64,000 bases of DNA from Psammoneis japonica (GCA_008632985.1 QPGO01000055.1:62001-126000); one strand, 5' to 3'; positions 1 through 43,159 are shown, numbered from the stretch's first letter. Translations and numbers: made by a program. Notes: a model not told the origin generated them from the sequence alone.

Positions 1-5
1 CAGTC

Positions 6-1687: not shown

Positions 1688-2819
1688 TCTCCGCCTTGCG
1701 ACGGCAAAGGCCCGCGAAGCTGTCACTGCTGAGCGAGCCCGTGCCACGGACACCGTCTGGGCCAAGTGCTGGTTGCCTTTCTTGTCCGACATCGGAATCG
1801 ACAACCCTCTCCTCACCAGCGTCCAAGACAAAATCCCAATGCTCTGAGTCTTTGCCCATCGCCTTGGGGATGGATGCCTCAGCCGCAGCGGTGACCCAAT
1901 CTCAGCTCCGCATGTTCGTGACGAAGTCCTTCACGTCGCGGAGACGTTCACCGAACTGGGTGCCCCGGACCCGCGTCCAATGCCACACGGCATGATGGAC
2001 CCTCGCCTCACTCGCCTGTGCAGTGCATGCTCAAAAGACGATCCACCTCCGAACCGAGTCAAGCCTCTCCCGATTCAAACAGTGCACCACGCACAAGCCC
2101 TCGTCGATGAATCTTCCGCGCTCGACAACGCTGTCATCGACATGTCCTGGATTGGCCTCTTCTATCTCTTGCGACCTGGCGAGCATTGCAAAAGCAAGGA
2201 CAATGACCCCTTGGCACTAGCTGACATCAAACTGCTCGTCGGACAACGAGCTCTCGACCACTTGACCTGTCCCTTGCGACACCTCTTCCTCGCTGCACAC
2301 AGCAGCATCACCTTCGACACCCAGAAGAACCGGGAGTGCGGTGAGACGGCAGGTCACGCCTGAAGCTCCCACTCAAAAGCCTGCCCGGTTCTCGCCATCG
2401 CTCGCCATGTACACTGTCTACGTTCGAACGGCGCCAATGCTAACACCCCCCTGTGTGCCATGCGCCTCGGCACGCGTTGGGGTCATGTCACCAGCCGCGC
2501 CATTGCCAAGATGCTCCAAGTGTCGGCTGCCGCCCTGCCACACCTCGGATTCCTGCCAAAAGACGTCACAGCCCGCAGCCTCCGCGCCAGTGGCGCCATG
2601 GCCCTGCTGTGCGCCAAAGCAGACACCGACATCATCCGTCTCGTCGGCCGTTGGAAATCCGACGCTGTGTTTCGATGCCTTCACGCTCAAGCGTTGCCAC
2701 CAATCGCAGGACTCTCCACCAAGATCCTGAACTGCAGAAATTTCACGTTGCTCCCGGGGTCCGATGTCCCCCCCGTTGCGCAAAACATCATCAATCAAGC
2801 CGAAGCACCCGCCAACTGA
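1683..2819 (+). pseudogene. Tyrosine recombinase with two in-frame TGA stops (1845, 2361) and the catalytic Tyr replaced by Cys
   Basis: LFYLLRPGE(H), FDTQKN, RSLRASGA, GRWKSDAVFR(C); ORFs 1383.., 1980.. and 2460.. share one frame. Confidence 0.85.
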
Positions 2820-2932
2820 CGAGTGCACGACTTCACCCACCCTCAGCTCCGCTTCTGGCCCATCCCCTTCTTCCTTGTCGGCCCTCCAAGAGTGGCGGAT
2901 CGGAGGCGGTCTCGGTTGCGGGTGAGCCTGTG

Positions 2933-3028
2933 GAGGGCAAGAAACCCTGGTAAAGCGCTGACACCACCAACTGCCACCTCCCAACTACAGTGGGACGCAC
3001 CCCCCAGCAGCATTGGTGGCGAACAGCC
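2933..3028 (+). repeat. Direct repeat copy 1 (96 bp) of the YR element
   Basis: Aligns without gaps to 3437-3532. Confidence 0.9.
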
Positions 3029-3144: not shown

Positions 3145-3436
3145 NNNNNNNNNNNNNNNNNNNNNNNNNNNNNNNNNNNNNNNNNNNNNNNNNNNNNNNN
3201 NNNNNNNNNNNNNNNNNNNNNNNNNNNNNNNNNNNNNNNNNNNNNNNNNNNNNNNNNNNNNNNNNNNNNNNNNNNNNNNNNNNNNNNNNNNNNNNNNNNN
3301 NNNNNNNNNNNNNNNNNNNNNNNNNNNNNNNNNNNNNNNNNNNNNNNNNNNNNNNNNNNNNNNNNNNNNNNNNNNNNNNNNNNNNNNNNNNNNNNNNNNN
3401 NNNNNNNNNNNNNNNNNNNNNNNNNNNNNNNNNNNN
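3145..3436. other. Assembly gap (N run)
   Basis: Run of N. Confidence 1.
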
Positions 3437-3532
3437 GAGGGCAAGAAACCCCAGCAAAGCGCTGACACCACCAACTACCACCTCCTAACTATAGTGGGAC
3501 GCACCCCCCAGCAGCGTTGGTGGCGAATAGCC
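3437..3532 (+). repeat. Direct repeat copy 2, probable 3' terminus of the YR element
   Basis: Aligns to 2933-3028; unique sequence follows. Confidence 0.85.
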
Positions 3533-5879: not shown

Positions 5880-8800
5880 AAACAAAGACGAGGCACACAA
5901 AGTCCGTGTTCATCTTCATGTCGATCCACACTCGCATCTGAGGTCAAGAACAGCATGACGAGCCATGTGATGAATTCCCCACAGCCAAACAACCAGTTTC
6001 TTCCATCTTCTTTCTTTGCTTCAGAGTTCAAACTTGGTCATCCCACATGTTGTCCTTGTTGTGATGTTGTTGGCACAAGGACAGAATTTCAACTTTTTTC
6101 CGTGATGCACCAGGTCCTTTTTGCTTGCATCTTTTCATGTTCCTCGTCATTTTAGATCTTTTTGTGCAATGGTGTTCTTCAGGGAAAAGCAGTGCACAAA
6201 CCACGCCATTTTCACTTCATGAATCACTTGGCTCTGGCCATCAATGTGACCAATGGCATCAGTGTTCTCTTCAAATTGGCAATGGAGTTGCATGGCACAA
6301 GTGTGGAAGGCGGTGAAACAGTGCTGCAAGATGAGTCAGCTCAAAGATTGCTGCCCAGACATGCTTCAATGAGGTTGAATGAAATGCACAACAAAAAGAT
6401 GTGGCCAAGTGAAGGTTGTGACAATGACTGAAAGCCCCAAAATCACCACAGTGTCAAATTGAAGTGTGGCATGAAGTCAAAGTGTGTCTTGTGTTGGCGC
6501 CATTTTCAGCTGCAAGAAAAAGAGCAGAGAGCAAGCCAGAACAATGCTCAGCCCTCAGCTGCACATTGTGGACACTGGGTGGGACTTTCAACTTGACCAG
6601 AGCTTGATGCTGCAGTGCATCTTTGCAATTCCATCCAAAGTCTGCTGTGCCACATTTTTCAGATCACTTTTCCATCCATTTTTTGTTGGGGGGGGGTCCT
6701 CTGGCTGATGCCAAAACAACACTTCAATCTGCAAATTGCCATGGTGCGGACTGCAGAGGCATGGGCAAAAGATGCCACAGCTGTGGTGGGGCCATGAACG
6801 CCAGCCCTGCAGTGACCCTTGAGCCTTCTGACTTCATCAGCAGCACTGGGTTGGGTGGCGCTGAGCCTTGAGAAGTCAAAAACAGGGGCCTTTTCCCAGT
6901 GCCAAAAACAAAACAGCTCTCAACCACAGCATGTCAAGCTCAATGAAGCTGCCCACCCAAAGCTTTTGCAATGCTTGAGAAAAGGCATCTTGGTTGCTTG
7001 AATGTCGCGATTTGTTGGTCATGTTGCAGTGCACCCAAAGCAGATTTTGCTCACATTGGCAGCAACAAGAACTGCTGCACCATCTCCACCAGTTTCTGGT
7101 TTTGTCCTTTGTCCAAGTGCAGCAAGACAAGCCAAGGATGCAAGTCTTTTCCACAGTGCCAGAGCCACTGGGAGACTCAAGAGGGCACGTCAAGGATGCT
7201 GACTGGGCACAAAGGTGGGAGAATGTCAGCATCTCAAACAAATCAAGGCCAACCTTCCAACTTTTCACATTTTTGTGCTCATGGAAGGCAGGCAGTGCTG
7301 CTCTTCAGAGGCACCCATGTGTTGGAGCTGTTGATGGTCACCCATCTCTTGTCAAGAAGCACGTGGTTGTGAATCTCCTTCTGAAGTTGCTTTTTTCCAA
7401 ACTTTGATGACCAGCCAACAGGCAACCACATGCCAGCAGAGAAGTCAGGTGGCTGCACTTTTTTGGTTGTCCTGCAAAAGGGCAGCAAGACAACATTGCC
7501 AATGCCAGGAACATTTTGTCAACACTTGCTGCAAAATCATGGGCAAAATCAGTGCTGCGTGCCAAAGCCAAGAGGAAAAGCTGTGGCCTCTTGGTGAAAA
7601 GGCATGAGTGGAAGCTGATGCTGGTGGCAGAGGCGCATGTGTTCCTTGCGGTGGCAGCATGACATGAGCTTTTGTGTCTGGAGGATGCAGCAACAGCAGG
7701 TGCAAGAAATTGGTTGGCAATGAGTGTTGAAAAGTTGGTGGCTGGGAGTTTGGCAAGGTTGGTGCCAAAACAGTGGAGGAGAAACATGTCTGGTTTTCAT
7801 TCTTGTGTGGTGTTGAGCAACCTGGGCAAGGTTGCCATGGAGTCATGACAAGCCAGAGAGATTTTGTGCAACAATCTGGGAGTGGATGATGTTTGTGCTT
7901 TTTTTCTGTTTTGACTGCAAACAGGTCAGCTGATGATGTTGTGCCTGCAGACACAGTGCTGCATCATGAGCGCCAGCATTGCCACCAACTTTGACAGCTC
8001 ACATCATCTGTCTGGATGTGAGCATCACATTGCTGTTTCCATCACTGGGTGTTGCTGTGCATGGCAAGGATGATGATGCCACACATGAAATTTGGAGCTT
8101 TGGTGGCTGGCAAAACAAGGGCACTGTGCACCAGCCAGTTGGGCACATGTCAAAATCAGCCAAACAACAATCCAAAGTTTTCCATTTTCTGTTTGCCAGT
8201 GGCTTGCATGCTGTTGCACACCTGCAATGTTCGTGCTGTTCCTCTGCCAGCTGACCATCTGGCCACTGGTTGACCAGATGCAGGAGCTTCTTCAGCTTGC
8301 ACTTCTCTTTCACTGAAAAATCTTTCTTTTCCTCCTGCAGCATGAACTGTTGCAAACACATGTGTCAGCCTCAAGTCTCTTGAGTGCCAGTGCCTCTCCC
8401 ACCCTCACAGCTGTGCTGCATCAGTGTGTGTGGCTTTTGCAGTGTGGGGGCACATTTTTGCATTTTTCTCCTGTGCTTCCAGCCACGTGTGAATCTCCAA
8501 GCCGTGTGCACAAAACAACATTTGTGTGATTTTGACATGGTCGCTGACTTGCAGATTCATCCAGATGTCCATGCTCTGTTGTGTTTTTTTTTTTTTGTGT
8601 GATCAAAGTTTTTCGTGGCGACAAATGAGCGGCAACACAACGGGCGATGTTGAAGATTTGAACACATCAAATGTTTGTGTGTGCCAGCATGAAATGTTTG
8701 CTTGCAATGTCATTCAGAAGGCATTCTGCCTGCAAAGACTTCACTGGATCTAATGGGCTGTTGTGAGGACTCTTTGGCGCAACCGAAAAAAAATGTTTGA

Positions 8801-9290
8801 CTGCACCCACACTCCTGAAACACTTGCAAAAGCCCACCTGCACAAGCATCTTTCATGAGAATGCTGCACACATGAAGAACGCTCAATTTTTGCTCAAAAG
8901 AGGTTGTTGTTTTGTGCATTGCCTGGGGCTGGAGCGTGTCGCTCGCCGTCTTTGCAGCACTGATCTGTGTCATCATGTGTGCCGCTGTGCCGCACAGCAG
9001 GCCAGCGCGCCAATGATTGGCGTGGTGCTTGGTTTGCTCTGCATGCCTGATGGCAGATGGTTTGTTGCACAGTGTCTTTTGTCACACCTCAATCTCTTGT
9101 TGCAGGCAGGGCCAAGGTGCTTCATTTTCACAGGGAGCGAAGTCCTCTGACGAAAAAGTTGGCTGACAAGTGGCAAGGAAAAAGTGCAGCGGCTGTCATT
9201 GCAGCACTGCTTGCGCCTTCGACTGTGTGATTGATGTGTGACCACTGTGACACAACATGTGTCTCACAGCATTGTTGATGAGACGTGTGG
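5880..9290. other. TpA- and CpG-depleted degenerate block, probable old transposon relic (family not recognised)
   Basis: Almost no TA and few CG, excess TG/CA, many short Cys/His-rich spurious ORFs; boundaries approximate. Confidence 0.6.
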
Positions 9291-13029: not shown

Positions 13030-13285
13030 TTTTCGTCGCTACGTACGTTGTAGCAAAAAATCTACACAAAATATCCACAATCTCTTCTCAAACAGGCAAA
13101 CAGGGCTATTTTTATATGTGTATATGCAAATATTATGTCGCATGAATATGTTAATGAATATAATGAACGAATACATATCAGTATAAATTCTGAAATTTTT
13201 ATCTGTCTTTCCTACTTTGACTTTGAGTACAACTTGCGCGTTGGTGGACCTCAGACATTTTGGAAATTTTGCACGCAGTCACGCA

Positions 13286-13487
13286 TGTGATTTGATTGTA
13301 GCTATTCTGCTGTTGTAACAATCAAAGGGCTAAGAAAATTGTGTGTTAAAATAGAATGTGAATTTTTAAAGTGCGTAGTTGGTCTCTTGTCGGAAGTAAG
13401 TGCGTCAGTAAAGAATCTAGCTCTTGAATCAAGTTCAAGGACTAGGACAGTTCGCCTGTCTGTCCGTTTGACCCTGGATTCATCACA
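13286..13487 (-). repeat. 3' LTR
   Basis: TG...CA ends; aligns to the other two LTRs; PPT at 13488-13499. Confidence 0.95.
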
Positions 13488-13520
13488 CTCCCTCTCAAGA
13501 GCCAATGCAGCGTTGTTTCC

Positions 13521-16500
13521 TTGCCAACCAAGTGTGAACTTTCGATGCCAAACGAGCAACTCTAGTGACAAAGGCTTGGTCAAGCAATCTGCAGGCTGAG
13601 CCTCGGTGTCAATTTTCACTGTCTCAATCTGTCCGCTCTGGACATGTGACCGGAAGTGGTGCAACTTGACATTGAGATGCTTTGTACGAGGTCGGCACTT
13701 GTGGACTCGCGCCATCTCTAGTGCACCGCTGTTGTCCTCGAGCACTCTGCAATGGATCTTGGGTTCCGCTCGATCGATCGGAAAACCCTCTGCTTTCAAT
13801 TCTTTCAGCATCTCCATCAAAGGGATCGCCTCTCGCAGGGCACAGCTCAGTCCCGTGCACTCGCTCTCAGTTGAAGAGAGACACATTTCTCCCTGTAATT
13901 GGGATTTCCACGTGACCGGACATCCACCGTACATAATGACACATCCATGTCTGGACCTTGCAGTGTCTGGATTCGAAGTGTCACTCTTGTCGAAGTTCCC
14001 CGCAAAATCCGCATCCACATGAACCTCGAGTTCCTTGGACTTGGTTGGCCGCATGACAATTCCTTTGTCCCTCGTTCCCATGAGACACCTGCCCAACCAC
14101 CTGATTGCCTCACCGTGCTCGACTTTTGGAGCTGCTGTGAACCTCGCGCACTGGTGAATTGTGTGTGAACAGTCGCTTCGGGTGCCACGCTCCAAGCAAT
14201 TCAATTTTCCAATCATGCTCCGGCAGTCGAAGCTGTTGTCAAAGTCTTCTGAGTCTTGGTGTCGACCCAAAATCACGGATGATGCAGCTGGAGTGTCTTT
14301 CGTCTTGGTGTTCTTCTGGAAGTTCAGTTGCTCCAGAATTTGATCGACAAGGTGAGGTTGCGTCAGATGTGTCGTCCCGTCCGCTTTCCTGTCGACATTC
14401 ACCCCAAGAAAATCTTGAATGTCGCCTTCCTCCGTCATGTTTAGGTCTGCGCTTCGTGTGTCTTTCACGACTTGATCAAGCTCCTTTTTGTCTGGACCAG
14501 CAAGCAAAGAATCATCCGTGTAGAGGACGCACATGCACTTTCCTCGGAAGAAGACGCACTCATCATATTTCGACTGCTTGAAGCCGAGCTTGTTGACAAG
14601 TTTGTCCACGAGATAGTCGTTCCACACTCGGCCAGCTTGTTTCTGACCGTGTGCATTTCGATGGAGTTCGAGCACACAGTCCTCCGAGTTGCCATCTTCT
14701 ACCTCGAATCCCTTGGGAATTTTCATGTGGATCTCTCGCTCGACTGGGGCCTGCGGAAACGCCAGCACGCAATCGAGTTGCTTGGTGTGCCAATTGTTCA
14801 TGGCCGAGAGAATTGGCAGCATTCGGATCGAGCTCCATGAGGCTGCAGGTGCGTGTGTCCTGTCCAGATTGTAGTGAATTGACTTTTTCATCCTTGACCC
14901 GTCGATGTTGAGCCTCGCCTTGTACTTTTTGACTTTTCTCGTCTTGATGTCGCGTTTCTGCTTCATTTGCCACACTGCAGGCAATGCTGTGGCATCCTTG
15001 GGGATCTCGGAAATGTGTCTCACCGAGAAGTTTCGGTTCCCGATCTGATCTTGGAATTCTTTTTCCATCGCCTTGACGAACTCCTTCGCATCTTTTTCCT
15101 TCATCGCTTTGTGGTGGCACATGGTGTCTGGGTCCGCCGTCGACTTGCAGGCATGCAAGGGATCTTCTTCGGACAATTCTTGTTGAGGACAGAGAGATTT
15201 GAATCCGAAGATCTCTCCCTCTGTCTCTCCAATGCATTCTTCAGCTCTCGCTAGTGACTCGGCGGCATGTCTTGGGTTCGGTCTACTGACACGTCCCGAT
15301 CTGGTCGTCACCAGAGGTGCGTCGCGTTGCGCTGCGTCTTGTTGTTGTGCTGGAGCTTCCACGTTAGTAGCGCGCTGTGGGTTGCCTCCTGAGCACTGGT
15401 TGGGAGGTTGCTGTCCTCCCTCTGAGTTGGCGATTCGTTCTCGCCTTGTGTTCCATTCAAGCTCGACCCATCAGGCTCTTGGTCTGTTGGTCGGCTGTCG
15501 TCGGTGCTCAACCACATGGGTTGTTCCCTGGAGGATTTTCGTTTTCTCCTCTTCTTGTGGCTCTTCTTGTTCGTGAGCCTCACGCTGTTTTCGCGTTTTC
15601 TGTTGTTGGGGGTCTCGGATGCTCCGTCAGCCTGGCCATCGGCTGGTGGATCTTCAAAGCCTGCTTTGGCCTTCCATCCGATCTTCCAGCGCTCTTGTTG
15701 CGCCATGTGAAAACTCGGGACGAATCTTACATGGAATTGTGGGCTTGCTCGTCCTGTTTCGATGTCGAGGACAAGCGCTGCGTTTCGGCAGTGCACTGGC
15801 GATTGGCCAAGGTAAATTCCCACGTTGGACCTTTGCTTCCACTTGTTGAAAATGTTTCCCGTCTGAAGTGCTTCTTCTAGCACCGCCACAGGACACCCAA
15901 AAGGGTGACAGTGTTTTGAGTTTACATCCACTGCGGATGAAGTGAACAGCTGGCATGCGCTTCGGCTCGCTGGATCTTTCGGCAGCGGCGTCTCGTTCAG
16001 CGCTTGATTTGCCATTCGCAATGCGTGCGGCCAGAGGTGAGGCGAGATGGCTTGTGGCCACCTCTTGTTCGCGTGGATCAATTGCGTTCTTGCTGGGTCT
16101 TGCAGATCTCGTATTTTCTTCTCTGCAATTCCATTTTGATGATGCGCATTCACTCCGGCAAAGGCAAGTCCCTGCCTTTGTTCTCGAACTGCATTCACCC
16201 ATGCCTTCGCCTTGAAAATGCCGTTGTCGGCATGACAGTGTCGGATTTTGATTCCACTTTCTTCTGCATGCTGCTCAAATGCTCTCTTCCCTCTCAACAT
16301 CTCTTCAGCAGAGCTCGTTTGCTGGAGGTGTGCGCATCCGTAGCCTGCAGCTTGGTCAACGTACACAGTCGCATGGTTGTAGCGGTTTTTGGCAAGCATC
16401 CCCGTGTTCTGTGCCACCAGTCCAGGTGTGCTCGAGACTGGCATGTCGACTGACACGACTTGTCCCGGTCTCGTAGGTGCAATTTTGTTCCTGCTCTTTT

Positions 16501-17797
16501 CGGTCCTTGGTCTCCATGGGCGCTTTGTTTGCTTCCCACAAAGGCATGCCGAGCAGACTGGGACTGGGCACTTGGCCAGCGTGGGATCAATGAGCCTCAT
16601 TTTCGCCATCTGTTGCAGGTGCTTGAATGATGTGTGACTGAATTTGTGATGCAGCTTCAGCAGTTTGGTGGTTTTTGTTTCTTCACCTCCATCTTGTCTG
16701 TCTTCCTCGTCTGGAACAACTGCCGCCGGACTGTCTTCATCCTTCTCCCCTTGCAGATCAAATTCGGTCTGCCGTGGGGCGGCCCAGTCAATGGGTTGGG
16801 CCGCGGTGTCCAATGAGTGTAGACCTGCTTTTTGAAGGTGGGATTCTGAGAGCGTTTCGTCGTCAGCCTCGTCATCGCCAACAAGGTGAGCTTCAGAATC
16901 GTGTGCGATTGTAGGATCGTCCTCGTCGTTCGCTGAAATTTTTGCCTCTTGACAGAAAGCATCACATTTGGAGCAGCCGGGAGCCAGGGCGAATGTGGCG
17001 ACGTTTGATTTTGTTTTGTCGATCGGTGTGGTTAGCTTGTGCGAATGTTGGTTCCAACACAAAACCGTTGCGCAATGGTTGGTGGTCTCCCCTGTCCCGC
17101 CAACTGCGTCTTTTTGAGATTGTGCCCAGTGTTGTGGACCAAGCAGTCGCGTGTCCTCGTCCGTGGGTACGTAGAACGAGTTGGGGATGCGAAACTTGTG
17201 TCGTTTTCCAGTGTCGTCTAACCAGTTCCATGCGATTGTGCCAATCATAACTCCTTTCGTTCGTGTTCCTCCGAAACCCTTGATGCAGCGATTCGATTGT
17301 CGCGGTGGGCCTTCGAAATCTTCGATGAACGAAGAAATGCATCCGGAACAGCGATTGTCAATGCCGACCGGGCCTCCATCAGTGTCGAAAACGACGTCAT
17401 TCGTGCGTGCTGGGCAGGTCTGAGCTTTGAATGCCAAAGCCGTGCATGCGGTCCACACATTGCGAATGCCTCGTGCCAAGTTCCATCGAGTGCACTTACG
17501 GCGTCGACACTTCACGATTGCTCCCTCTAGGGAGCGAATCCGTGCTCGCATGGCTTGTGCCTCTTTCCCGTTCGGGCTGCTCTCCCCCGTCCACATGGGA
17601 TTAACGAGTTTTCGGCGCTGTCGGGATCGATCTCGGCGTTCATAACGACTCTTGTTCCTAGATTTTCGTCGGTTCATTGGATTGGGCCGGATTGGTGAAA
17701 GGCAGGCTAGAATGTACAGTGACAGCGACCAGATCGTCTTGTGGGACTTGTGGGCTGCTCCTGTCAATCGCCTCCTCCACGTGGGTGACGTTGATGG
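13521..17797 (-). pseudogene. copia pol, unit A (protease, integrase, RT, RNase H); frameshift near 15350; likely original stop now CAA
   Basis: GIDNRCS, HHKFSH..C..C, VSVD/HADNG/QNGIAE, ARLNIDG, YTDD, DADFAG, STESE, EDNSGA. Confidence 0.9.
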
Positions 17798-19075
17798 TCA
17801 TTCCGCATCCGAAGATGAATCGTCTCCGCCGTTCTTGATCGCTTCCATAGCTTGTGAAATGCGGGCGGCATTCTTCGTCGCACCGCGCTGCTCTTTGTCT
17901 TCTTCATCCCTCTTGGGAATGAATCCGAGTCCTTTGCAATCCTTGGGATGGTGAATTCGCCACTTTCCACCACATTTTCCTCCAGTGATCTTGTCACACC
18001 AATGGCGCGGCTTGCCTTTCCACACGACGGGGATCTTTTCTTTACCCTTCGCCGGTGGTTTGGTGGGACCCTTCTCCCTGCGACACCTTTTCGAGGGCTC
18101 GCGTCGTTTCTTCTTGTGAGCCTTTTTCTTTTTCTCAAGGCTCGCAATCTTGGCTGACAGAGCAACAATCTGCTCCTCTTGAGGATCGGGAGCATTCCAT
18201 TCTCCATTTTCCTTCATCATCTTGAAGCGCTCGTTTGCCACATTCATGATGTCTTCAGGAGTCATGTCTTGTCCCTCATCATGCTGCTCCTTCTTCCTGC
18301 CAATGCAGTCAACGAACTTCTTGTCCGATGCGTTGGCACATCCCTTGAAGAGGTTTGCCAACAAGTCTTCTGCAGTCTCCCCTCGTGCGGCAAGCGCCTT
18401 CGTCATCATGAGCACATGCTGATTGAATTTTGTGATGTCCGAGTTGATCGTATGAATGCACTTGTCCAGTGATGATAACTTGGATCTGATGCTGGACGTT
18501 TTCGCATTCGAATCGAGATGGCTCTCGCGAATGATGACCTTGAGGAGCAGACATGCAGATGGACGTTTCTGTTGGATGGGATCTCCTTCCCTTGGCTGGA
18601 GTGTGTGCTCCTTCTTGTGCATCAAGATCTTGTTTAGTGCCTGGGTGTCGAGACTCGCCATCAGACACGAACAGAACATGTGATTGTCCTGTGTCGCACG
18701 TCCTTCTTCGAAGAGGCAAGCTCTCTCGTGTTGCTCAATTTGTTCCACAGTGAGCTGTCCGCAGTTGTCCACCAGATGAACACGATCACTGTCTTGCTCT
18801 TCGGGGTTCAAGTCGACCAGCAGAATGGACAATTCATGCTCGTCGTTGTTCCATCCGCAATCGCCCGCACGTTCATCAATTGCCTCCAGAAACGAGAACA
18901 AACTCTCTGGCGTGCAATTGAACAACTCTTCACTGAGTTTGTACATCGCTCTTTCGTAGAGCTTCCTTCCGGATGTTCTCCGACAGTCAATTGCGCCGGT
19001 CATGGCGCCCGCTGGCGTGAATGCAAATGGGACATCCTCTCCAGCAGCTGACACGCTGCCATCAGAACCCGCCAT
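17798..19075 (-). CDS. copia gag, unit A (hypermutated)
   Basis: 425-aa ORF directly after the LTR/PBS with a C-terminal WC..C..W..H..C knuckle-like motif. Confidence 0.8.
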   Translation of the reverse strand: MAGSDGSVSAAGEDVPFAFTPAGAMTGAIDCRRTSGRKLYERAMYKLSEELFNCTPESLFSFLEAIDERAGDCGWNNDEHELSILLVDLNPEEQDSDRVHLVDNCGQLTVEQIEQHERACLFEEGRATQDNHMFCSCLMASLDTQALNKILMHKKEHTLQPREGDPIQQKRPSACLLLKVIIRESHLDSNAKTSSIRSKLSSLDKCIHTINSDITKFNQHVLMMTKALAARGETAEDLLANLFKGCANASDKKFVDCIGRKKEQHDEGQDMTPEDIMNVANERFKMMKENGEWNAPDPQEEQIVALSAKIASLEKKKKAHKKKRREPSKRCRREKGPTKPPAKGKEKIPVVWKGKPRHWCDKITGGKCGGKWRIHHPKDCKGLGFIPKRDEEDKEQRGATKNAARISQAMEAIKNGGDDSSSDAE

Positions 19076-19088
19076 GGCACAACCAACT

Positions 19089-19106
19089 TAGCGCAGAGGA
19101 AGCGTG
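19089..19106 (-). promoter_or_regulatory. Putative primer-binding site complementary to the D-arm of initiator tRNA-Met (second copy 24908-24925)
   Basis: Plus strand TAGCGCAGAGGAAGCGTG resembles eukaryotic tRNAi-Met TGGCGCAGCGGAAGCGTG and abuts the LTR end. Confidence 0.6.
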
Positions 19107-19306
19107 TGATTTGATTGTAGCTGTTCTGCTGTTGTGACAATCAAAGGGCTAAGAAAATTGTGTGTTAAAATAGAATGTGAATTTTTAAAGTGCACAGTTG
19201 GTCTCTTGTCAGAAGTGAGTGTGTCAGTGAAGAATCTAGCTCTTGAATCAAGTTCAAGGACTAGGACAGTTCGCCTGTCTGTCCGTTTGACCCTGGATTC
19301 ATCACA
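19105..19306 (-). repeat. Shared central LTR
   Basis: PPT on one side, PBS-like sequence on the other. Confidence 0.95.
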
Positions 19307-19339
19307 CTCCCTCTCAAGAGCCAATGCAGCGTTGTTTCC

Positions 19340-22300
19340 TTGCCAACCAAGTATGAACTTTCGATGCCGAACGAGCAACTCTAGTGACAAAGGCTTGGTC
19401 AAGCAATCTGCAGGCTGAGCCTCGGTGTCAATTTTCACTGTCTCAATCTGTCCGCTCTGGACATGTGACCGGAAGTGGTGCAACTTGACATTGAGATGCT
19501 TTGTGCGAGGTTGGCACTTGTGGACTCGCGCCATCTCTGGTGCACCGCTGTTGTCCTTGAACACTCTGCAATGGATCTTGGGTTCTGCTCGATCGATCGG
19601 AAAACCCTCTGCTTTCAATTCTTTCAGCATCTCCATCAAAGGGATCGCCTCTCGCAGGGCACAGCTCAGTCCCGTGCACTCGCTCTCAGTTGAAGAGAGA
19701 CACATTTCTCCCTGTAATTGGGATTTCCACGTGACCGGACATCCACCGCACATGATGACACATCCATGTCTGGACCTTGCAGTGTCTGGATTCGAAGTGT
19801 CACTCTTGTCGAAGTTCCCCGCAAAATCCGCATCCACATGAACCTCGAGTTCCTTGGACTTGGTTGGCCGCATGACAATTCCTTTGTCCCTCGTTCCCAT
19901 GAGACACCTGCCCAACCACCTGATTGCCTTACCGTGCTCGACTTTTGGAGCTGCTGTGAACCTCGCGCACTGGTGAATTGTGTGTGAACAGTCGCTTCGG
20001 GTGCCACGCTCCAAGCAATTCAATTTTCCAATCATGCTCTGGCAGTCGAAGCTGTTGTCAAAGTCTTCTGAGTCTTGGTGTCGACCCAAAATCACGGATG
20101 ATGCAGCTGGAGTGTCTTTCGTCTTGGTGTTCTTCTGGAAGTTCAGTTGCTCCAGAATTTGATCGACAAGGTGAGGTTGCGTCAGATGTGTCGTCCCGTC
20201 CGCTTTCCTGTCGACATTCACCCCAAGAAAATCTTGAATGTCGCCTTCCTCCGTCATGTTTAGGTCTGCGCTTCGTGTGTCTTTCACGACTTGATCAAGC
20301 TCCTTTTTGTCTGGACCAGCAAGCAAAGAATCATCCGTGTAGAGGACGCACATGCACTTTCCTCGGAAGAAGACGCACTCATCACATTTCGACTGCTTGA
20401 AGCCGAGCTTGTTGACAAGTTTGTCCACGAGATAGTCGTTCCACACTCGGCCAGCTTGTTTCTGACCGTGTGCATTTCGATGGAGTTCGAGCACACAGTC
20501 CTCCGAGTTGCCATCTTCTACCTCGAATCCCTTGGGAATTTTCATGTAGATCTCTCGCTCGACTGGGGCCTGCGGAAACGCTGGCACGCAATCGAGTTGC
20601 TTGGTGTGCCAATTGTTCATGGCCGAGAGAATTGGCAGCATTCGGATCGAGCTCCATGAGGCTACAGGTGCGTGTGTCCTGTCCGGATTGTAGTGAATTG
20701 ACTTTTTCATCCTTGACCCGTCGATGTTGAGCCTCGCCTTGTACTTTTTGACTTTTCTCGTCTTGATGTCGCGTTTCCGCTTCATTTGCCACACTGCAGG
20801 CAATGCTGTGGCATCCTTGGGGATCTCGGAAATGTGTCTCACCGAGAAGTTTCGGTTCCCGATCTGATCTTGGAATTCTTTTTCCATTGCCTTGACGAAC
20901 TCCTTCGCATCTTTTTCCTTCATCGCTTTGTGGTGGCACATGGTGTCTGGGTCCGCCGTCGACTTGCAGGCATGCAAGGGATCTTCTTCGGACAATTCTT
21001 GTTGAGGACAGAGAGATTCGAATCCGAAGATCTCTCCCTCTGTCTCTCCAATACATTCTTCAGCTCTCGCTAGCGACTCGGCGGCATGTCTTGGGTTCGG
21101 TCTACTGACACATCCCGATCTGGTCGTCACCAGAGGTGCGTCGCGTTGCGCTGCATCTTGTTGTTGTGCTGGAGCTTCCACGTTAGTAGCGCGCTGTGGG
21201 TTGCCTCCTGAGCACTGGTTGGGAGGTTGCTGTCCTCCCTCTGAGTTGGCGATTCGTTCTCGCCTTGTGTTCCATTCAAGCTCGACCCATCAGGCTCTTG
21301 GTCTGTTGGTCGGCTGTCGTCGGTGCTCAACCACATGGGTTGTTCCCTGGAGGATTTTCGTTTTCTCCTCTTCTTGTGGCTCTTCTTGTTTGTGAGCCTC
21401 ACGCTGTTTTCGCGTTTTCTGTTGTTGGGGGTCTCGGATGCTCCGTCAGCCTGGCCATCGGCTGGTGGATCTTCAAAGCCTGCTTTGGCCTTCCATCCGA
21501 TCTTCCAGCGCTCTTGTTGCGCCATGTGAAAACTCGGGTCAAATCTCACATGGAATTGTGGGCTTGCTCGTCCTGTTTCGATGTCGAGGACAAGCGCTGC
21601 GTTTCGGCAGTGCACTGGCGATTGGCCAAGGTAAATTCCCACGTTGGACCTTTGCTTCCACTTGTTGAAAATGTTTCCCGTCTGAAGTGCTTCTTCTAGC
21701 ACCGCCACAGGACACCCAAAAGGGTGACAGTGTTTTGAGTTTACATCCACTGCGGATGAAGTGAACAGCTGGCATGCGCTTCAGCTCGCTGGATCTTTCG
21801 GCAGCGGCGTCTCGTTCAGCGCTTGATTTGCCATTCGCAATGCGTGCGGCCAGAGGTGAGGCGAGATGGCTTGTGGCCACCTCTTGTTCGCGTGAATCAA
21901 TTGCGTTCTCGCTGGGTCTTGCAGATCTCGTATTTTCTTCTCTGCAATTCCATTTTGATGATGCGCATTCACTCCGGCAAAGGCAAGTCCCTGCCTTTGT
22001 TCTCGAACTGCGTTCACCCATGCCTTCGCCTTGAAAATGCCGTTGTCGGCATGACAGTGTCGGATTTTGATTCCACTTTCTTCTGCATGCTGCTCAAATG
22101 CTCTCTTCCCTCTCAACGTCTCTTCAGCAGAGCTCGTTTGCTGGAGGTGTGCGCATCCGTAGCCTGCAGCTTGGTCAACGTACACAGTCGCATGGTTGTA
22201 GCGGTTTTTGGCAAGCATCCCCGTGTTCTGTGCCACCAGTCCAGGTGTGCTCGAGACTGGCATGTCGACTGACACGACTTGTCCCGGTCTCGTAGGTGCA

Positions 22301-23616
22301 ATTTTGTTCCTGCTCTTTTCGGTCCTTGGTCTCCATGGGCGCTTTGTTTGCTTCCCATGAGGGCATGCCGAGCAGACTGGGACTGGGCACTTGGCCAGCG
22401 TGGGATCAATGAGCCTCATTTTCGCCATCTGTTGCAGGCGCTTGAATGATGTGTGACTGAATTTGTGATGCAGCTTCAGCAGTTTGGTGGTTTTTGTTTC
22501 TTCACCTCCATCTTGTCTGTCTTCCTCGTCTGGAACAACTGCCGCCGGACTGTCTTCATCCTTCTCCCCTTGCAGATCAAATTTGGTCTGCCGTGGGGCG
22601 GCCCAGTCGATGGGTTGGGCCGCGGTGTCCAATGAGTGTAGACCTGCTTTTTGAAGGTGGGATTCTGAGAGCGTTTCGTCGTCAGCCTCGTCATCGCTGA
22701 CAAGGTGAGCTTCAGAATCGTGTGCGATTGTAGGATCGTCCTCGTCGTTCGCTGAAATTTTTGCCTCTTGACAGAAAGCATCACATTTGGAGTAGCCGGG
22801 AGCCAGGGCGAACGTGGCGACGTTTGATTTCGTTTTGTCGATCGGTGTGGTTAGCTTGTGCGAATGTTGGTTCCAACACAAAACCGTTGCGCAATGGTTG
22901 GTGGTCTCCCCTGTCCCGCCAACTGCATCTTTTTGAGATTGCGCCCAGTGTTGTGGACCAAGCAGTCGCGTGTCCTCGTCCGTGGGTACGTAGAACGAGT
23001 TGGGGATGCGAAACTTGTGTCGTTTTCCAGTGTCGTCCAACCAGTTCCATACGATTGTGCCAATCATAACTCCTTTCGTTCGTGTTCCTCCGAAACCCTT
23101 GATGCAGCGATTCGATTGTCGCGGTGGGCCTTCGAAATCTTCGATGAACGAAGAAATGCATCCGGAACAGCGATTGTCAACGCCGACCGGGCCTCCATCA
23201 GTGTCGAAAACGACGTCATTCGTGCGTGCTGGGCAGGTCTGAGCTTTGAATGCCAAAGCCGTGCATGCGGTCCACACATTGCGAATGCCTCGTGCCAAGT
23301 TCCATCGAGTGCACTTACGGCGTCGACACTTCACGATTGCTCCCTCTAGGGAGCGAATCCGTGCTCGCATGGCTTGTGCCTCTTTCCCGTTCGGGCTGCT
23401 CTCCCCCGTCCACATGGGATTAACGAGTTTTCGGTGCTGTCGGGATCGATCTCGGCGTTCATGACGACTCTTGTTCCTAGATTTTCGTCGGTTCATTGGA
23501 TTGGGCCGGATTGGTGAAAGGCAGGCTAGAATGTGCAGTGACAGCGACCAGATCGTCTTGTGGGACTTGTGGGCTGCTCCTGTCAATCGCCTCCTCCACG
23601 TGGGTGACGTTGATGG
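19340..23616 (-). pseudogene. copia pol, unit B; same frameshift as unit A plus an extra CGA->TGA stop at 21781
   Basis: Near-identical to unit A at offset 5819. Confidence 0.9.
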
Positions 23617-24894
23617 TCATTCCGCATCCGAAGATGAATCGTCTCCGCCGTTCTTGATCGCTTCCATAGCTTGTGAAATGCGGACGGCATTCTTCGTCGC
23701 ACCACGCTGCTCGTTGTCTTCTTCATCCCTCTTGGGAATGAATCCGAGTCCTTTGCAATCCTTGGGATGGTGAATTCGCCACTTTCCACCACATTTTCCT
23801 CCAGTGATCTTGTCACACCAATGGCGCGGCTTGCCTTTCCACACGACGGGGATCTTTTCTTTACCCTTCGCCGGTGGTTTGGTGGGACCCTTCTCCCTGC
23901 GACACCTTTTCGAGGGCTTGCGTCGTTTCTTCTTGTGAGCCTTTTTCTTTTTCTCAAGGCTCGCAATCTTGGCTGACAGAGCAACAATCTGCTCCTCTTG
24001 AGGATCGGGAGCATTCCATTCTCCATTTTCCTTCATCATCTTGAAGCGCTCGTTTGCCACATTCATGATGTCTTCAGGAGTCATGTCTTGTCCCTCATCA
24101 TGCTGCTCCTTCTTCCTGCCAATGCAGTCAACGAACTTCTTGTCCGATGCGTTGGCACATCCCTTGAAGAGGTTTGCCAACAAGTCTTCTGCAGTCTCCC
24201 CTCGCGCGGCAAGCGCCTTCGTCATCATGAGCACATGCTGATTGAATTTTGTGATGTCCGAGTTGATCGTATGAATGCACTTGTCCAGTGATGATAACTT
24301 GGATCTGATGCTGGACGTTTTCGCATTCGAATCGAGATGGCTCTCGCGAATGATGACCTTGAGGAGCAGACACGCAGATGGACGTTTCTGTTGGATGGGA
24401 TCTCCTTCCCTTGGCTGGAGTGTGTGCTCCTTCTTGTGCATCAAGATCTTGTTTAGTGCCTGGGTGTCGAGACTCGCCATCAGACACGAACAGAACATGT
24501 GATTGTCCTGTGTCGCACGTCCTTCTTCGAAGAGGCAAGCTCTCTCGTGTTGCTCAATTTGTTCCACAGTGAGCTGTCCGCAGTTGTCCACCAGATAAAC
24601 ACGATCACTGTCTTGCTCTTCGGGGTTCAAGTCGACCAGCAGAATGGACAATTCATGCTCGTCGTTGTTCCATCCGCAATCGCCCGCACGTTCATCAATT
24701 GCCTCCAGAAACGAGAACAAGCTCTCTGGCGTGCAATCGAACAACTCTTCACTGAGTTTGTACGTCGCTCTTTCGTAGAGCTTCCTTCCGGATGTTCTCC
24801 GACAGTCGATTACGCCGGTCATGGCGCCCGCTGGCGTGAATGCAAATGGGACATCCTCTCCAGCAGCTGACACGCTGCCATCAGAACCCGCCGT
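23617..24894 (-). pseudogene. copia gag, unit B (ACG where unit A has ATG)
   Basis: Near-identical to 17798-19075. Confidence 0.8.
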
Positions 24895-24923
24895 GGTGCA
24901 ACCAGCTCAGCGCAGAGGAAGCG

Positions 24924-25125
24924 TGTGATTTGATTGTAGCTGTTCTGCTGTTGTAACAATCAAAGGGCTAAGAAAATTGTGTGTTAAAATAGAATGTGAA
25001 TTTTTAAAGTGCGTGGTTGGTCTCTTGTCGGAAGTAAGTGCGTCAGTAAAGAATCTAGCTCTTGAATCAAGTTCAAGGACTAGGACAGTTCGCCTGTCTG
25101 TCCGTTTGACCCTAGATTCATCACA
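24924..25125 (-). repeat. 5' LTR
   Basis: Aligns to the other LTRs; outer flank CACGCA. Confidence 0.95.
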
Positions 25126-25589
25126 CACGCATCGCGCGATGTCACGACGAGCCGCATTGCCGACCCCGCCACTTTTTTGCGTCTCTGCGGAGTTGAGAGT
25201 TGACGAGTGAGTCGAGGAGCCGACGGTTGACATTGAGGAATAGTCCACCCCGAGCTTATTTGCCAAAATGCATGTATAATGGAAATAAAAGTCATTCTTG
25301 TCGCTTTGATTTTCTTTCTAGTTGTGTTGTACTCGGGGATTCAATTAATGGGAAATACCTTTGTATCAGTCGACCGCGCCGCCACAAGCTGCTATGCTGC
25401 AGAATTCGAGGTTGCAAACGGAACCGACAAGTACCGAAAAGCTTGAGAAATGTCACGCTCTAAAAACTGATGCGGTGTTACAGAAAGAGCGGTTGATGAA
25501 TCGCGATGGCTCGCGATTGGATTCCAGGTCGCAATCGCTCACACCGCGCTTCGGTTCCAAGGTCGCTCGGCTTGCCACGGGAGCAGTGT

Positions 25590-36400: not shown

Positions 36401-39400
36401 GACCAAGAACTGTCTTCAACCAATGTCAAGCACCGTGTGGTGCAGCATTTGCCATCTGAGTGACAACCTTGGGCATTCTGTTGCTGTGGCTCTCTGGTGC
36501 TGTCAAGGCCAGGATGTTCCTGTCATGACACGTGGTGCAATCACCATCACTGTGGATGGCAGTCTTGCAGGACACTCTGCTGATCTCCAGCATTGGCTCT
36601 TCAAGATGCACAGGAGCGTGGGCATTCAGAAAGGGATGTGTGCCATAAATCCCAGGATTGTGCAAGTGGCGGTGTTCCACATTCTGTGCCAAAGCTCTCC
36701 ATTTCACACTTGACATGAGTTGAAAGTCTCTGCTTCATAAATGTGAACAACTTGACGACAATGAATCTTGTTGTTGCCTGGCTCCTTGAAGATCACAACA
36801 TCAACAATGTCTCTCCAACAGCAACAAGAGCTTCCCCACTTTAGGGCATGATCAAGCAAGTTCAAATGGGTGCAGATCAATGTTTGTTGCACTTTGTTCA
36901 GATGTGAACACTTGGGAGTTGGGTCACCTGCTGGAGATGTAGATTCAGAATGTGAGTGGGATGTGCACATTGCCTTCCAATGATCCAAGTGAAGGCCCAA
37001 GCAAATGGAAGTGGTCATTGCATCTTTTCCACGACTTGAGTTTGCCTTGGAGATTGGATTCTGTCAATGGCTTGGAGACTGAAACTGGAGATTGCCGTTG
37101 CAGGTGTTGGACAAAAAAAGAGGTGGCTCTGTCAAGGGATGTGGTGTCACACTCACCATCCAGGACAATGTCAGCCATCATGGTGTCACCTTTGCATCCC
37201 AAGTCCACAGACAGTGGGGGGGGGCGTGGGAGGAGTGCCATGAGCTTGTCCAAAATGTCTCTGATTGCAAGAGCAAAGAGCTGCAGTGACATCTTCTGGA
37301 GCATTGATTGCAATCCAGCCCTTGCATTCTTTTGGGTTTGCAGCCAGATTGCATGGCACTTGGACATGGCTGATGCTGGTGTCCCATTGTGCTTTGCATG
37401 CATTGACCTTCCAAAACAGCTCAGCTGTTTCTTCTGCCTTTTGCATGTTTCTGATGATGGTGGCTGATTTGCGGGTAGCCGCCGTTCCTTCAAGGTCCAA
37501 TTTGGCAATCTTCTTTGCCAATTTGTGTTCACAATGTTCCACACTTTCCTTTGCCACTGTCTTGCATTTGACTTGAGCCTGTTGCAGAGCTGCTTGACAT
37601 TCTTTGAAGGTTGTCAAAATGGAAAAGGAGCCTGTGAGCTTTGAGCAAATCTGTTGCATCTGGGCAATGCAGTCAAGACGGGCCCGTGTCATGGACAGAA
37701 TGCAAGCAAAGATGTGAACCCGGCAGCGAAGGTCCACCAACTTAACCAACCAATCTGGTTTGTGATGAGAGCGGCACCTTTTTGCAGCAGCCAAGGAAAA
37801 TTGTAAAAGATCCCTGTCCAAACGTTTGGCCAACTCATGATCAATTTCATTGGACTCAAGGAGTTGGATGGATTGTTCCAAAACAGAGTGGCTTGCAAGC
37901 ATGGGGCCAATGGCGGTCAAGTGTGAGGTGACTTGAGGTTTGGACAAAGCTTGAATGTCACAAAAGGCAGCCTCAGGGCGATCAACTGTTGGGTTCCCAA
38001 ATGAGGCCATTGTGTCAAAATCAACGCAACATCATGCTCAATGGTCAGAAGCAACACGGCAGCCAAATGCTTCACAACCACCTGACCAAGCAGCCTGCAA
38101 GGCTCCAGGAGAGAGGCAAGAAAGCAATCCAACCGTTTGGATCCTTGGGCACATGTGGTGAAATCAGACTCACCCACAGTGTCAAAGAGCACATCAGATG
38201 AGTCAAGCCATTGAGCCAAGGCATGCAAGGAATCAGCATCCACTGAAAAGTCTGCACTCAAGTCACCAAATGACACCACCTCACAATGTGGCTCAGCCAA
38301 GAAGTCTTGAAGAACACTTGACAGGTCTGTGCAAAATGCTTTGCATGGATCCAATGCTTTGCATCCCTGTTGTTGCAACAGATGAAGTTGTTGCACATGG
38401 GCCATGGTTTTTTCCAGTTGGTGTTGATTTTTGACACAAACTCTGTGGCTGGAAATGAACATCACTTGCCGTCGTTGCGGCCGTCAAAAACTTGGATGGA
38501 CCATCATCCCAGTGGATCAGATCCCTGAGACCAATGCCGGGCCAAAATCAAGTTGCATGACATGATGGCAGTGCCACCTGGCTCACATTGAGTTGAAAAG
38601 GGGGCAGAGCTGCTGGAAAACATTCCTTCACCATGCAAAAGAGACTTGGATGCAGCAGACCTGCACACGGATGACATGTCAACCTGGGCAGTGTCCAAAC
38701 ACACTTCAGAAATGCCAACAATGTCCGCTTGGATTTTGTTGGTGATCTGACATGCCACCTCAATGTCTCCACCCCACTTGTTGAACTTGCACCCATTGGC
38801 ATTGAAAGCACAGAGGCAAGTGTGATGTGGAAAATTTGGTTGCAACTCATTCCCAATGGAGTCATTTGCCTTGAGACAAGAAAATCAATTCTGCACTCTG
38901 CCAGAGGAGTGCACCGTCTGCTGTCTAGAAGATGTTGCCATGCAGAAGTGGAAGCAGCTGATGAAGGCACACCACTCATGGTTGGACCGTGCGCTCCTCT
39001 GAACAGAAGACTGGGGCTTGTGGCAATTCAAGGGATCCGATGCATCATGAAAGGAGAATTTTTGGCACCAGGAAGCATGACAAAACACGTGGGTGAGCAT
39101 GAGAGACTCGCTGTGTTGCAAAGGGATGTCAGGGAGGTGCCCAGTCATCTGAGGGGGTGGAGGTGGTGAAGTCCAACCCTACGTTGACAATCCTGCTCTT
39201 TGTCTCTGTGGTTGGTTGACTGCTCCAGAGCTTCCATGTCATTGGGACATTTCCCAGCTGTGCTCAGTGAAGGTTGACTGGCTTGAAGCAACTGAACAAT
39301 CTGGCTCATCTGCTCTTGCATGCCCATCATCTGCTTGGAGTGTTGAGCCTGCAATGCTGCAATGTCCTGCTTGTGTTGTTTGTTGAATGTGTTGTTCAGT

Positions 39401-42620: not shown

Positions 42621-43159
42621 CAGAGGCTGCAACACAGTGTTGTTCACTTTCATTTGTCTCATTTGGAACATTTGATGGTGCACATGTGTGTCATCATTTT
42701 TGAACTTAACTTGCAAAGATGAGAGTCACGTTGAAATTGTTGTTGCCTTTTCATGTGTGCAATTGTCGTTGTTTTGTTTTGATTTAAATTTGCCAATGAC
42801 TTTTGACATGCACCCCATTTGCATGAAATGAGTTTTGTTTTGACAAATTTGTTGCACATTTGTTGAAATGTTAACTTTGACAGTTCTTTTCAACAGCTCC
42901 ACCCCACTCTTGCAAAGCCACAGAGGATGGTGTTTCTTCTACACCCAAGTTGGCCCCATGAGTGCTTGGCTCATCATTTTCACCTGCACTTGCCAGAATT
43001 TCAGTCAATGGTTCCCTGCCCAGATTTTGGCACATTTTCTACAAGCACAACACTCCACCTGTTCCATGACAGCACATCCTCTCCCCATGAACACATTTGA
43101 CAAGAGCATGCACTGTTGCAATTCCTGTGCATTCTATGTGAATCGTCAACCAACTGTTG

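Follow-up and report, generated by a model that had tools for sequence, protein, structure and literature searches.

What kind of mutation wears down the transposons of the diatom Psammoneis japonica, and in which direction do the bases change? The question is raised by a tandem Ty1/copia retrotransposon located in a 64,000-nt window of its genome (GCA_008632985.1 QPGO01000055.1:62001-126000; all coordinates count from the first letter of this window). The array occupies positions 13286-25125 on the minus strand and has the arrangement LTR-interior-LTR-interior-LTR (LTR, long terminal repeat), with a period of 5819 bp and two units, A and B, that align without indels. We propose that the state of this dimer is probably explained by a context-specific transition decay that acts in place and has two arms, one at CG and one at TA, the latter due to an agent linked to silencing.

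The three LTRs were compared and found to vary at exactly 10 positions (Table 1). All variants are transitions: seven exchange TA with TG or CA, three exchange CG with TG or CA, and none lies elsewhere. An earlier note on this DNA, made from the sequence alone, had given the same 10 substitutions and the same partition, and the three-way comparison reproduced them exactly; it also confirmed the single site that the note had described as TA, CA and TG in the three copies (13376-7, 19195-6, and 25014-5). Since the LTR target consists of 18 TA/CG-class dinucleotides covering 36 of 202 nt, the chance of finding all 10 variants within it is about 3e-8. The full alignment of units A and B, classified by context as the note had recommended, showed 78 differing positions and 0 indels, with 76 transitions and 2 transversions. 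The differences were not spread over all contexts. Seventy of the 78 were in TA/CG-class dinucleotides, which fill 15% of the unit (P ~7e-48), and the complete breakdown was 38 CG-type, 24 TA-type, 8 in four doubles where one unit has CA and the other TG, 6 other transitions (4 of them A/G behind A), and 2 transversions.

Because three LTRs are an unrooted three-taxon set, the sites at which LTR1 equals LTR3 polarise nothing on their own. Polarisation relied on an outgroup of diatom copia proteins, in blastp columns of 171-220 homologues; each informative site was covered by about 125-220 residues. At 9 of 9 informative TA-type A/B sites the conserved residue was the one matched by a TA ancestor, and 0 sites polarised toward TA (Table 1). 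The conserved Leu at the double 14763-4 (152/219, Pro 0) and the conserved Tyr at the double 16539-40 (102/143, Arg 0) can be reached only from TA. The second double is part of an integrase codon, located two residues past the CxxC of the HHCC finger and not a metal ligand, for which the earlier note had deduced a TAT ancestor from TGT in unit A and CAT in unit B. That deduction was borne out, as the column contained Y 102, F 37, H 1, V 1, Cys 0, and Arg 0 in 143 homologues. The ancestry of TA, which the note had based on parsimony among the LTRs, is upheld on the grounds of the protein outgroups. Ten CG-type A/B sites were polarised by protein as CG loss, including a CGA to TGA change that created a stop codon in unit B.

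A third copy of the family was available in contigs of one public sample that holds the locus; the details given here come from 40 of its 119 differences and 8 of 109 contig pieces. The sample run, which holds 68% of the assembly's sampled words, may be the assembly's own source. Relative to unit A, 116 of the 119 differences were transitions and, among the differences listed, many were CA/TG doubles at positions identical in the two units. TA fitted the conserved residue better than CG at 9 of the 9 two-base doubles listed: seven were strong, including near-invariant Tyr (204/209, 204/213, 219/219, and 209/211) and Ile (194/214), and two were weak (S 22 vs G 10; T 32 vs A 5). A four-base stretch at 14457-60 was left outside these nine. 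At 12 of 12 CG sites variable between A and B (14730-16328), the third copy agreed with the CG-bearing unit, as judged from the absence of these sites among the 27 of 28 differences listed. Of the 30 columns with consensus Tyr, the dimer has Tyr in both units at only 7. The two units share Cys at 11 columns, His at 6, Phe at 2, and Ala at 1, and they differ from each other at the other 3. Judged against these outgroups at the informative sites, TA and CG were the ancestral states in the dimer and CA/TG the derived ones. The signature recurs in P0009, a copia protein from another source, in which 7 of 20 conserved Tyr columns hold Cys or His; none of the other 237 homologues has more than 2.

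The depletion of TA and CG extends to two other parts of the window (Table 1). Per 500 bp, both blocks contain 0-5 TA, 0-17 CG, and 99-132 CA+TG (84 in one bin), their edges are sharp, each falling inside one 500-bp bin, and GC content is unchanged at ~0.48. The observed/expected ratio (o/e) in the blocks was 0.02-0.05 for TA and 0.19-0.36 for CG, with CA/TG at twice expectation. Seven open reading frames (ORFs) of host genes had TA o/e of 0.43-0.65 and CG o/e of 0.79-1.05, and an eighth, GC-rich ORF (254-1687) had 0.19 and 0.98, respectively. Old repeat pairs inside the large block differed to a great extent by CA/TG doubles, counted among their transitions (9/35, 11/32, and 4/15; 0 in a fourth, short pair), while a repeat in normal DNA had 7 transitions, 8 transversions, and 0 doubles. 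Five related copia loci from metagenomes (25-46% identical), which serve as a composition control and not as an outgroup, had TA o/e of 0.61-1.02, even with CG o/e of 0.05-0.13. Two of them, L002 and L004, combine CG o/e of 0.13 and 0.05 with TA o/e of 0.83 and 0.68, so that in other organisms CpG has decayed while TpA has not. Copia loci elsewhere can thus be poor in CG yet normal in TA, which marks the CG arm as widespread and the TA arm as peculiar to this genome.

The loss of TA depends on the flanking bases. Relative to normal DNA, the blocks retained TA at a ratio of 0.01 in RTAY (R, purine; Y, pyrimidine), of 0.085 where the flanks were mixed, and of 0.38 in YTAR (p=1e-15). The variable share of these sites in the dimer followed a like trend, 57, 40, and 24%, that was not significant (p=0.14). 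At mixed-flank sites the mutated base pair showed no strand preference (12/23), which rules out a one-strand motif, RTA or TAY. No consistent flank effect was found for CG, where the dimer and the blocks disagree.

The two arms proceed at different rates. Each unit had ~73 ancestral TA sites, of which 13 were lost in unit A and 19 in unit B, and 374 ancestral CG sites, of which 20 and 18 were lost. Per lineage, these losses amount to ~22% of TA and ~5% of CG sites, compared with 0.08% per base elsewhere; expressed per base, the rates are ~0.11, ~0.025, and ~0.0008, respectively. Loss of TA per site is ~4 times that of CG and ~135 times that of other bases. The divergence between A and B is 1.34% overall and 0.16% outside TA/CG sites, an 8-fold gap, and it follows that LTR-divergence dating is unreliable here, as the earlier note had warned: ages would be inflated ~8-fold and would vary with the position in the element.

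The losses also depend on the position in the array (Table 1). LTR2 carries 9 losses against ~3.1 expected from interior rates (P(>=9) ~0.001), and the 7 states private to it are all TA or CG losses. Edge and centre differed for CG (p=6e-5) and for TA (p=0.011). Where a single unit had changed, the copy nearer the array centre carried the derived state at 41 of 62 sites (p=0.015). For the unit's outer 1.14 kb the count was 24/29 (p=0.0005), while in the middle 3.5 kb the units were equal (17 vs 16). The earlier note had described a gradient from interior to edge, with 9 derived states in the central LTR and 1 and 2 in the outer ones. An interior excess is present at this locus, although its shape is that of a hot spot, LTR2 ±0.5 kb, plus a protected rim, and not a smooth slope. 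The count of 9/1/2 holds if TA and CG are taken as ancestral everywhere and becomes 7/1/2 under plain majority rule. Two of the LTR sites, 13304 and 13476, had been counted as parallel hits. Together with 13377 they fit a hybrid LTR2 whose left part comes from LTR3 and whose right part comes from LTR1; this explanation fits equally well and makes parallel hits unnecessary.

The comparisons show that the process acted in place, was confined to certain domains, affected both strands, and consisted of transitions at two self-complementary pyrimidine-purine steps, with CA/TG as the endpoint. We propose the following mechanism. In one arm, CpG, presumably methylated, would decay in the usual way to TpG or CpA. 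In the other, the self-complementary TpA would change to CpA or TpG, T:A to C:G, on either strand. CA/TG would be the stable end product of both arms. The TpA agent would be a base modification that is placed on silenced DNA at the palindromic TpA and misread at replication, and the position effect would arise because the silencing mark is densest, or homology sensing strongest, in the array's interior. A tentative candidate for the modification is oxidation of the thymine methyl group (to 5-hydroxymethyluracil, 5hmU, or 5-formyluracil, 5fU) by an enzyme of the TET/JBP type, while enzymatic deamination of adenine to hypoxanthine appears rather unlikely; an agent of some other nature is a serious possibility, slightly ahead of both. 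Deamination of adenine has the chemical advantage of better suiting the purity of the transitions. A bias in the repair of T:G mismatches, similar to very-short-patch (VSP) repair, was rejected because it is too weak and would lead to a preference for the TG context, which is absent here. It is close to an even question, leaning toward no, whether the genome has a mutator, or a mutagenic mark, dedicated to silenced DNA, one that targets palindromic TpA (best RTAY), converts T:A to C:G by adenine deamination or thymine oxidation, works beside CpG decay, and is strongest in array interiors. If it does, this would be a defence similar to repeat-induced point mutation (RIP) but aimed at a new target and running in the opposite direction, in which GC content is kept and RIP indices are evaded.

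Several points weigh against decay in place by such an agent. Both the agent and the methylation are deduced from sequence, at a single locus. Oxidised thymine yields some transversions, and only 2 of the 78 differences are of this kind; as for the other chemistry, we know of no natural nuclear DNA adenine deaminase. About 63% of the ancestral Tyr codons were gone, identically in A and B, before the units separated. This shared loss and the near identity of LTR1 and LTR3, which differ at only 3 sites, indicate that the source copy was already mutated, a situation that fits a dead copy mobilised in trans or hypermutation during retrotransposition. The lack of strand preference at mixed-flank sites means that the flank effect is not a simple one-strand motif, and the TA sites surviving in the blocks may be newly created. 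The tandem joint had no independent bridge among the contig pieces listed, and the sample run may be the source of the assembly itself. The position effect is weakly established, as it comes from one locus, post-hoc bins, and polarisation by the context rule.

An explanation based on known chemistry would be that only C-to-T decay took place, either RIP-like or by deamination of 5-methylcytosine, so that CG is ancestral, TA is the end state, and the doubles are old CpGs. All changes are indeed transitions within CG, CA, TG, and TA, and the majority rule reads 13304 and 13476 as TG to TA. Nonetheless, CG is rejected in favour of TA by each of the 9 informative A/B sites and each of the 9 doubles of the third copy. 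Both units also have TGY or CAY at 17 conserved Tyr codons, and the decayed blocks are not enriched in TA but nearly devoid of it, which leaves this explanation with practically no probability. Mutation that occurred mainly during retrotransposition, by editing of RNA or cDNA, with A and B perhaps being two cDNAs joined at integration, accounts for the ~63% of Tyr codons lost identically in both units, for the close likeness of LTR1 and LTR3, and for the opposite CA/TG states held by independent copies. We consider it improbable, since both strands were changed in each unit, so that editing of the sense RNA alone fails, and since LTR2 is unlike both outer LTRs and the excess follows the position in the array. 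Moreover, the 25-kb and 3-kb blocks are saturated and sharp-edged with no copia remnant, and the ratio of TA to CG loss is estimated to have been roughly constant before and after the duplication.

The central excess could also date from the formation of LTR2 itself, as a scar left by error-prone repair synthesis, by single strands exposed at the crossover, or by conversion from a diverged copy. The sharp peak within ~0.5 kb of LTR2, without a slope, and the resemblance of LTR2 to an LTR3/LTR1 hybrid at 13304, 13377, and 13476 agree with this idea. A diverged donor would be expected to bring a mixture of kept and lost sites, and 7 of the 7 private states are TA or CG losses, which makes conversion unlikely as the cause of the LTR2 excess. 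By our own reading of the comparison there is no strand coordination around LTR2, and a scar leaves unexplained the low CG loss of the outer 1.2 kb (1/122 vs 27/572 in the middle). This explanation is unlikely as a whole, although it is the one among the four that deserves most weight. An artefact, either modified bases misread by the sequencer or a dimer falsely joined from two haplotypes, is very improbable. It is favoured by the window gap flanked by a 96-bp duplicate, by the fact that the sole run with the locus may be the assembly source (68% of sampled words), and by the joint being unbridged in the 8 of 109 contig pieces listed. Against it, units A and B hold the same state at 17 of 18 lost Tyr codons and the third copy holds opposite states, so these are inherited bases and not miscalls, whether random or set by context. 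The units differ by a stop codon and share a frameshift, the asymmetry between centre and edge is not expected of two alleles joined end to end, and the 89 block ORFs without a match at the Pfam gathering cut-off fit real, old decay.

Decay in place at CG and TA was compared with known systems. The likeness to RIP of ascomycete fungi is considerable: transitions confined to repeats and transposons, sharp borders, both strands affected, coding capacity destroyed, and LTR dating defeated. In Neurospora, RIP has an edge effect within duplicated DNA. RIP depends on duplication, on a premeiotic stage, and on an enzyme of the RID/DNMT4 type. As described in the accessible portions of PMC2621366 and PMC7882544, RIP changes C to T, mostly at CpA, creating TpA and lowering GC content. 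By contrast, the dimer and the blocks lose TpA by T:A to C:G changes, their cytosine target is CpG, and GC stays at ~0.48; instead of a rise in TpA, its o/e is 0.02-0.19, and TA is ancestral at every informative site. Some diatoms carry DNMT4, related to the fungal RID and of unknown function according to the part of PMC9998398 at hand, and diatom transposons are CpG-methylated, as stated in excerpts of PMC2806351 and PMC9998398. Decay of methylated CpG matches the CG arm, as all polarised CG sites went to TG or CA, only in transposon or decayed DNA, and genes were spared (CG o/e 0.79-1.05 vs 0.19-0.36 in the blocks). It differs in leaving TpA untouched, and the other copia loci are depleted in CG without depletion of TA.

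A precedent for targeting is found in dinoflagellates, another lineage of the stramenopile-alveolate-rhizarian (SAR) group, where 5hmU made by TET/JBP enzymes prefers TA and TC, is located on repeats with 5-methylcytosine, and silences transposons, according to the available text of PMC11572971. A thymine modification that prefers TA and is placed on repeats is the point of likeness; the differences are that the same portion of PMC11572971 reports no mutational consequence and that TC is unaffected in this diatom. The literature search found no report of 5hmU in diatoms. Clustered transitions in retroelements are also produced by ADAR and APOBEC, which act on RNA or single-stranded cDNA, on one strand, before integration; here both strands are affected and integrated copies keep diverging. 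ADAR, a metazoan family, prefers a 5' U or A neighbour. A one-strand pattern was not observed, since sense-strand A-to-G and T-to-C changes are present in each unit and the shared lost Tyr codons are 11 Cys vs 6 His. Polymerase eta, as in somatic hypermutation, changes A:T at WA (W, A or T) and produces a large share of transversions. The TA context and the 4 AA-to-AG-type sites fit such a signature, but transversions were only 2 of 78.

To our knowledge, loss of TA is opposite to the direction of every known repeat-mutating system, and no known defence or decay removes TpA in this way. The literature search, with most subscription journals outside its coverage, found no account of TpA-directed transposon mutation in diatoms. 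We regard this as targeted repeat hypermutation of a new variety, with a fair chance that a new enzymatic system is behind the TA arm. If the process is general in the genome, transposons would be erased through removal of TpA at ~135 times the background per base. Old elements would escape protein searches while their composition looks normal, so that repeat annotation and RIP-style indices would miss them. The process would suggest that T or A is chemically modified at the TpA steps of diatom heterochromatin, and the change of Tyr codons to Cys or His would be a simple readout of it.

Table 1. Features of the array and the window, variable and polarised sites, and losses by position.
Feature	Position	Strand	Observation
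Target-site duplication, left copy	13280-13285		CACGCA (at least 5 bases, ACGCA); the 6 bases recur after LTR3
LTR1, outer	13286-13487	-	3' LTR; three-way identity
Interior, unit A	13488-19104	-	ORFs, polypurine tract, putative primer-binding side
LTR2, central, common to both units	19105-19306	-	Hot spot; three-way identity
Interior, unit B	19307-24923	-	Unit A ORFs shifted by 5819, plus extra stop
LTR3, outer	24924-25125	-	5' LTR; three-way identity
Target-site duplication, right copy	25126-25131		CACGCA
RT-RNaseH ORF, unit A	13302-15470	-	Pfam RVT_2, 3e-40
PR-IN ORF, unit A	15308-17797	-	gag_pre-integrs match and HHCC finger
gag-like ORF, unit A	17798-19087	-	
Polypurine tract	13488-13496	-	GAGAGGGAG; adjoins 3' LTR
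Putative primer-binding side	19091-19104	-	14 bases following 5' LTR; candidate by position
IN/RT frame-change zone	15308-15470	-	ORFs overlap in different frames; common to units A and B
Integrase codon	16538-16540 (unit A); 22357-22359 (unit B)	-	TGT in A, CAT in B; ancestor Tyr, TAT
Extra stop, unit B	21781-21783	-	CGA to TGA
Small hypermutated block	~6000-9000		0-1 TA, 2-16 CG per 500 bp
Large hypermutated block	~30500-56000		32001-56000: 65 TA, 341 CG, 5423 CA+TG
LTR variable site (LTR1/LTR2/LTR3)	13304		A/G/G
LTR variable site	13317		A/G/A
LTR variable site	13375		G/A/G
LTR variable site	13376		T/C/T
LTR variable site	13377		A/A/G
LTR variable site	13392		G/A/G
LTR variable site	13398		A/G/A
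LTR variable site	13403		C/T/C
LTR variable site	13410		A/G/A
LTR variable site	13476		G/G/A
A/B site	13534		TA lost; weaker support
A/B site	13720		Ancestor CTA, Leu 181/208; derived CCA in B
A/B site	13930		Ancestor TAC, Tyr 188/210; derived TGC in B
A/B site	14729		Ancestor TAC, Tyr 203/219; derived CAC in A
A/B site	14845		Ancestor GTA, Val 218/219; derived GCA in A
A/B site	16974		Ancestor TAC, Tyr 82 + Phe 40 of 129; derived TGC in A
A/B site	17232		TA lost; weaker support
Losses in LTR1			TA-class 1/13; CG-class 0/5
Losses in LTR2			TA-class 6/13; CG-class 3/5
Losses in LTR3			TA-class 2/13; CG-class 0/5
Zone, array end	<=1.2 kb from end		CG lost 1/122; TA lost 7/44
Zone, middle of array			CG lost 27/572; TA lost 18/93
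Zone, centre	within ~0.5 kb of centre		CG lost 10/59; TA lost 11/24

The element belongs to Ty1/copia, as indicated by the integrase located upstream of a reverse transcriptase (RT) of the RVT_2 type, the TG...CA ends of the LTRs (all three are 202 bp and end in TGTGAT...ATCACA), the polypurine tract at the 3' LTR, and a target-site duplication of 5-6 bp. The gag_pre-integrs match in the protease-integrase (PR-IN) ORF (3e-05, 24.1 bits) is under the 28.4-bit cut-off. The closest protein relatives are diatom copia elements with 40-64% identity (named sources Fragilaria, Chaetoceros, and Cylindrotheca). A single duplication, with CACGCA at both ends of the array, indicates that one insertion underlies the whole structure. 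A Ty1/copia element, similar to the diatom CoDi elements, would have inserted once and then dimerised; the agreement of LTR2 with LTR3 at its left end and with LTR1 further right suggests that this happened, most simply, via unequal crossing-over between LTRs.

Other features of the family were observed. An in-frame TGA is present between the gag-like and pol ORFs of both units (17798-17800 and 23617-23619) and may represent CGA after decay or a signal for read-through. A contig from another family copy has 1 extra base behind 15382 (21201 in unit B), at the frame change common to both units; this copy retains CG at 4 places lost in both units and seems less decayed. One contig links the LTR start (19105) to 28 bases unlike both the left flank and the interior, and this junction with foreign bases indicates that the family has at least one further LTR elsewhere in the genome.

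As for the origin of the blocks, tblastn with 7 homologues found no copia remnants elsewhere in the window, and the 20 + 69 block ORFs compared with Pfam gave nothing at the gathering cut-off and two matches below it. One of these, to Exo_endo_phos (38507-38884, minus strand, E=0.0012), would suit a relic of a long interspersed nuclear element (LINE) and is the sole hint of the block origin; the other, to a G-protein-coupled receptor (GPCR) family, is evidently spurious. The longest block ORF (489 aa, 43004-44470) had 0 matches among 1.84 billion representatives. A neighbouring major facilitator superfamily (MFS) transporter is nearest to those of raphid pennate diatoms (52-74%). A 96-bp direct repeat, 92% identical (2933-3028 and 3437-3532), flanks a run of N at 3145-3436 and is probably an unresolved overlap at an assembly gap. 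Positions 1-3000 of the window have GC of 0.59-0.63, with 0-6 TA and 38-48 CG per 500 bp and long ORFs without a Pfam family, and might belong to a young element from a different family or simply to a GC-rich gene.

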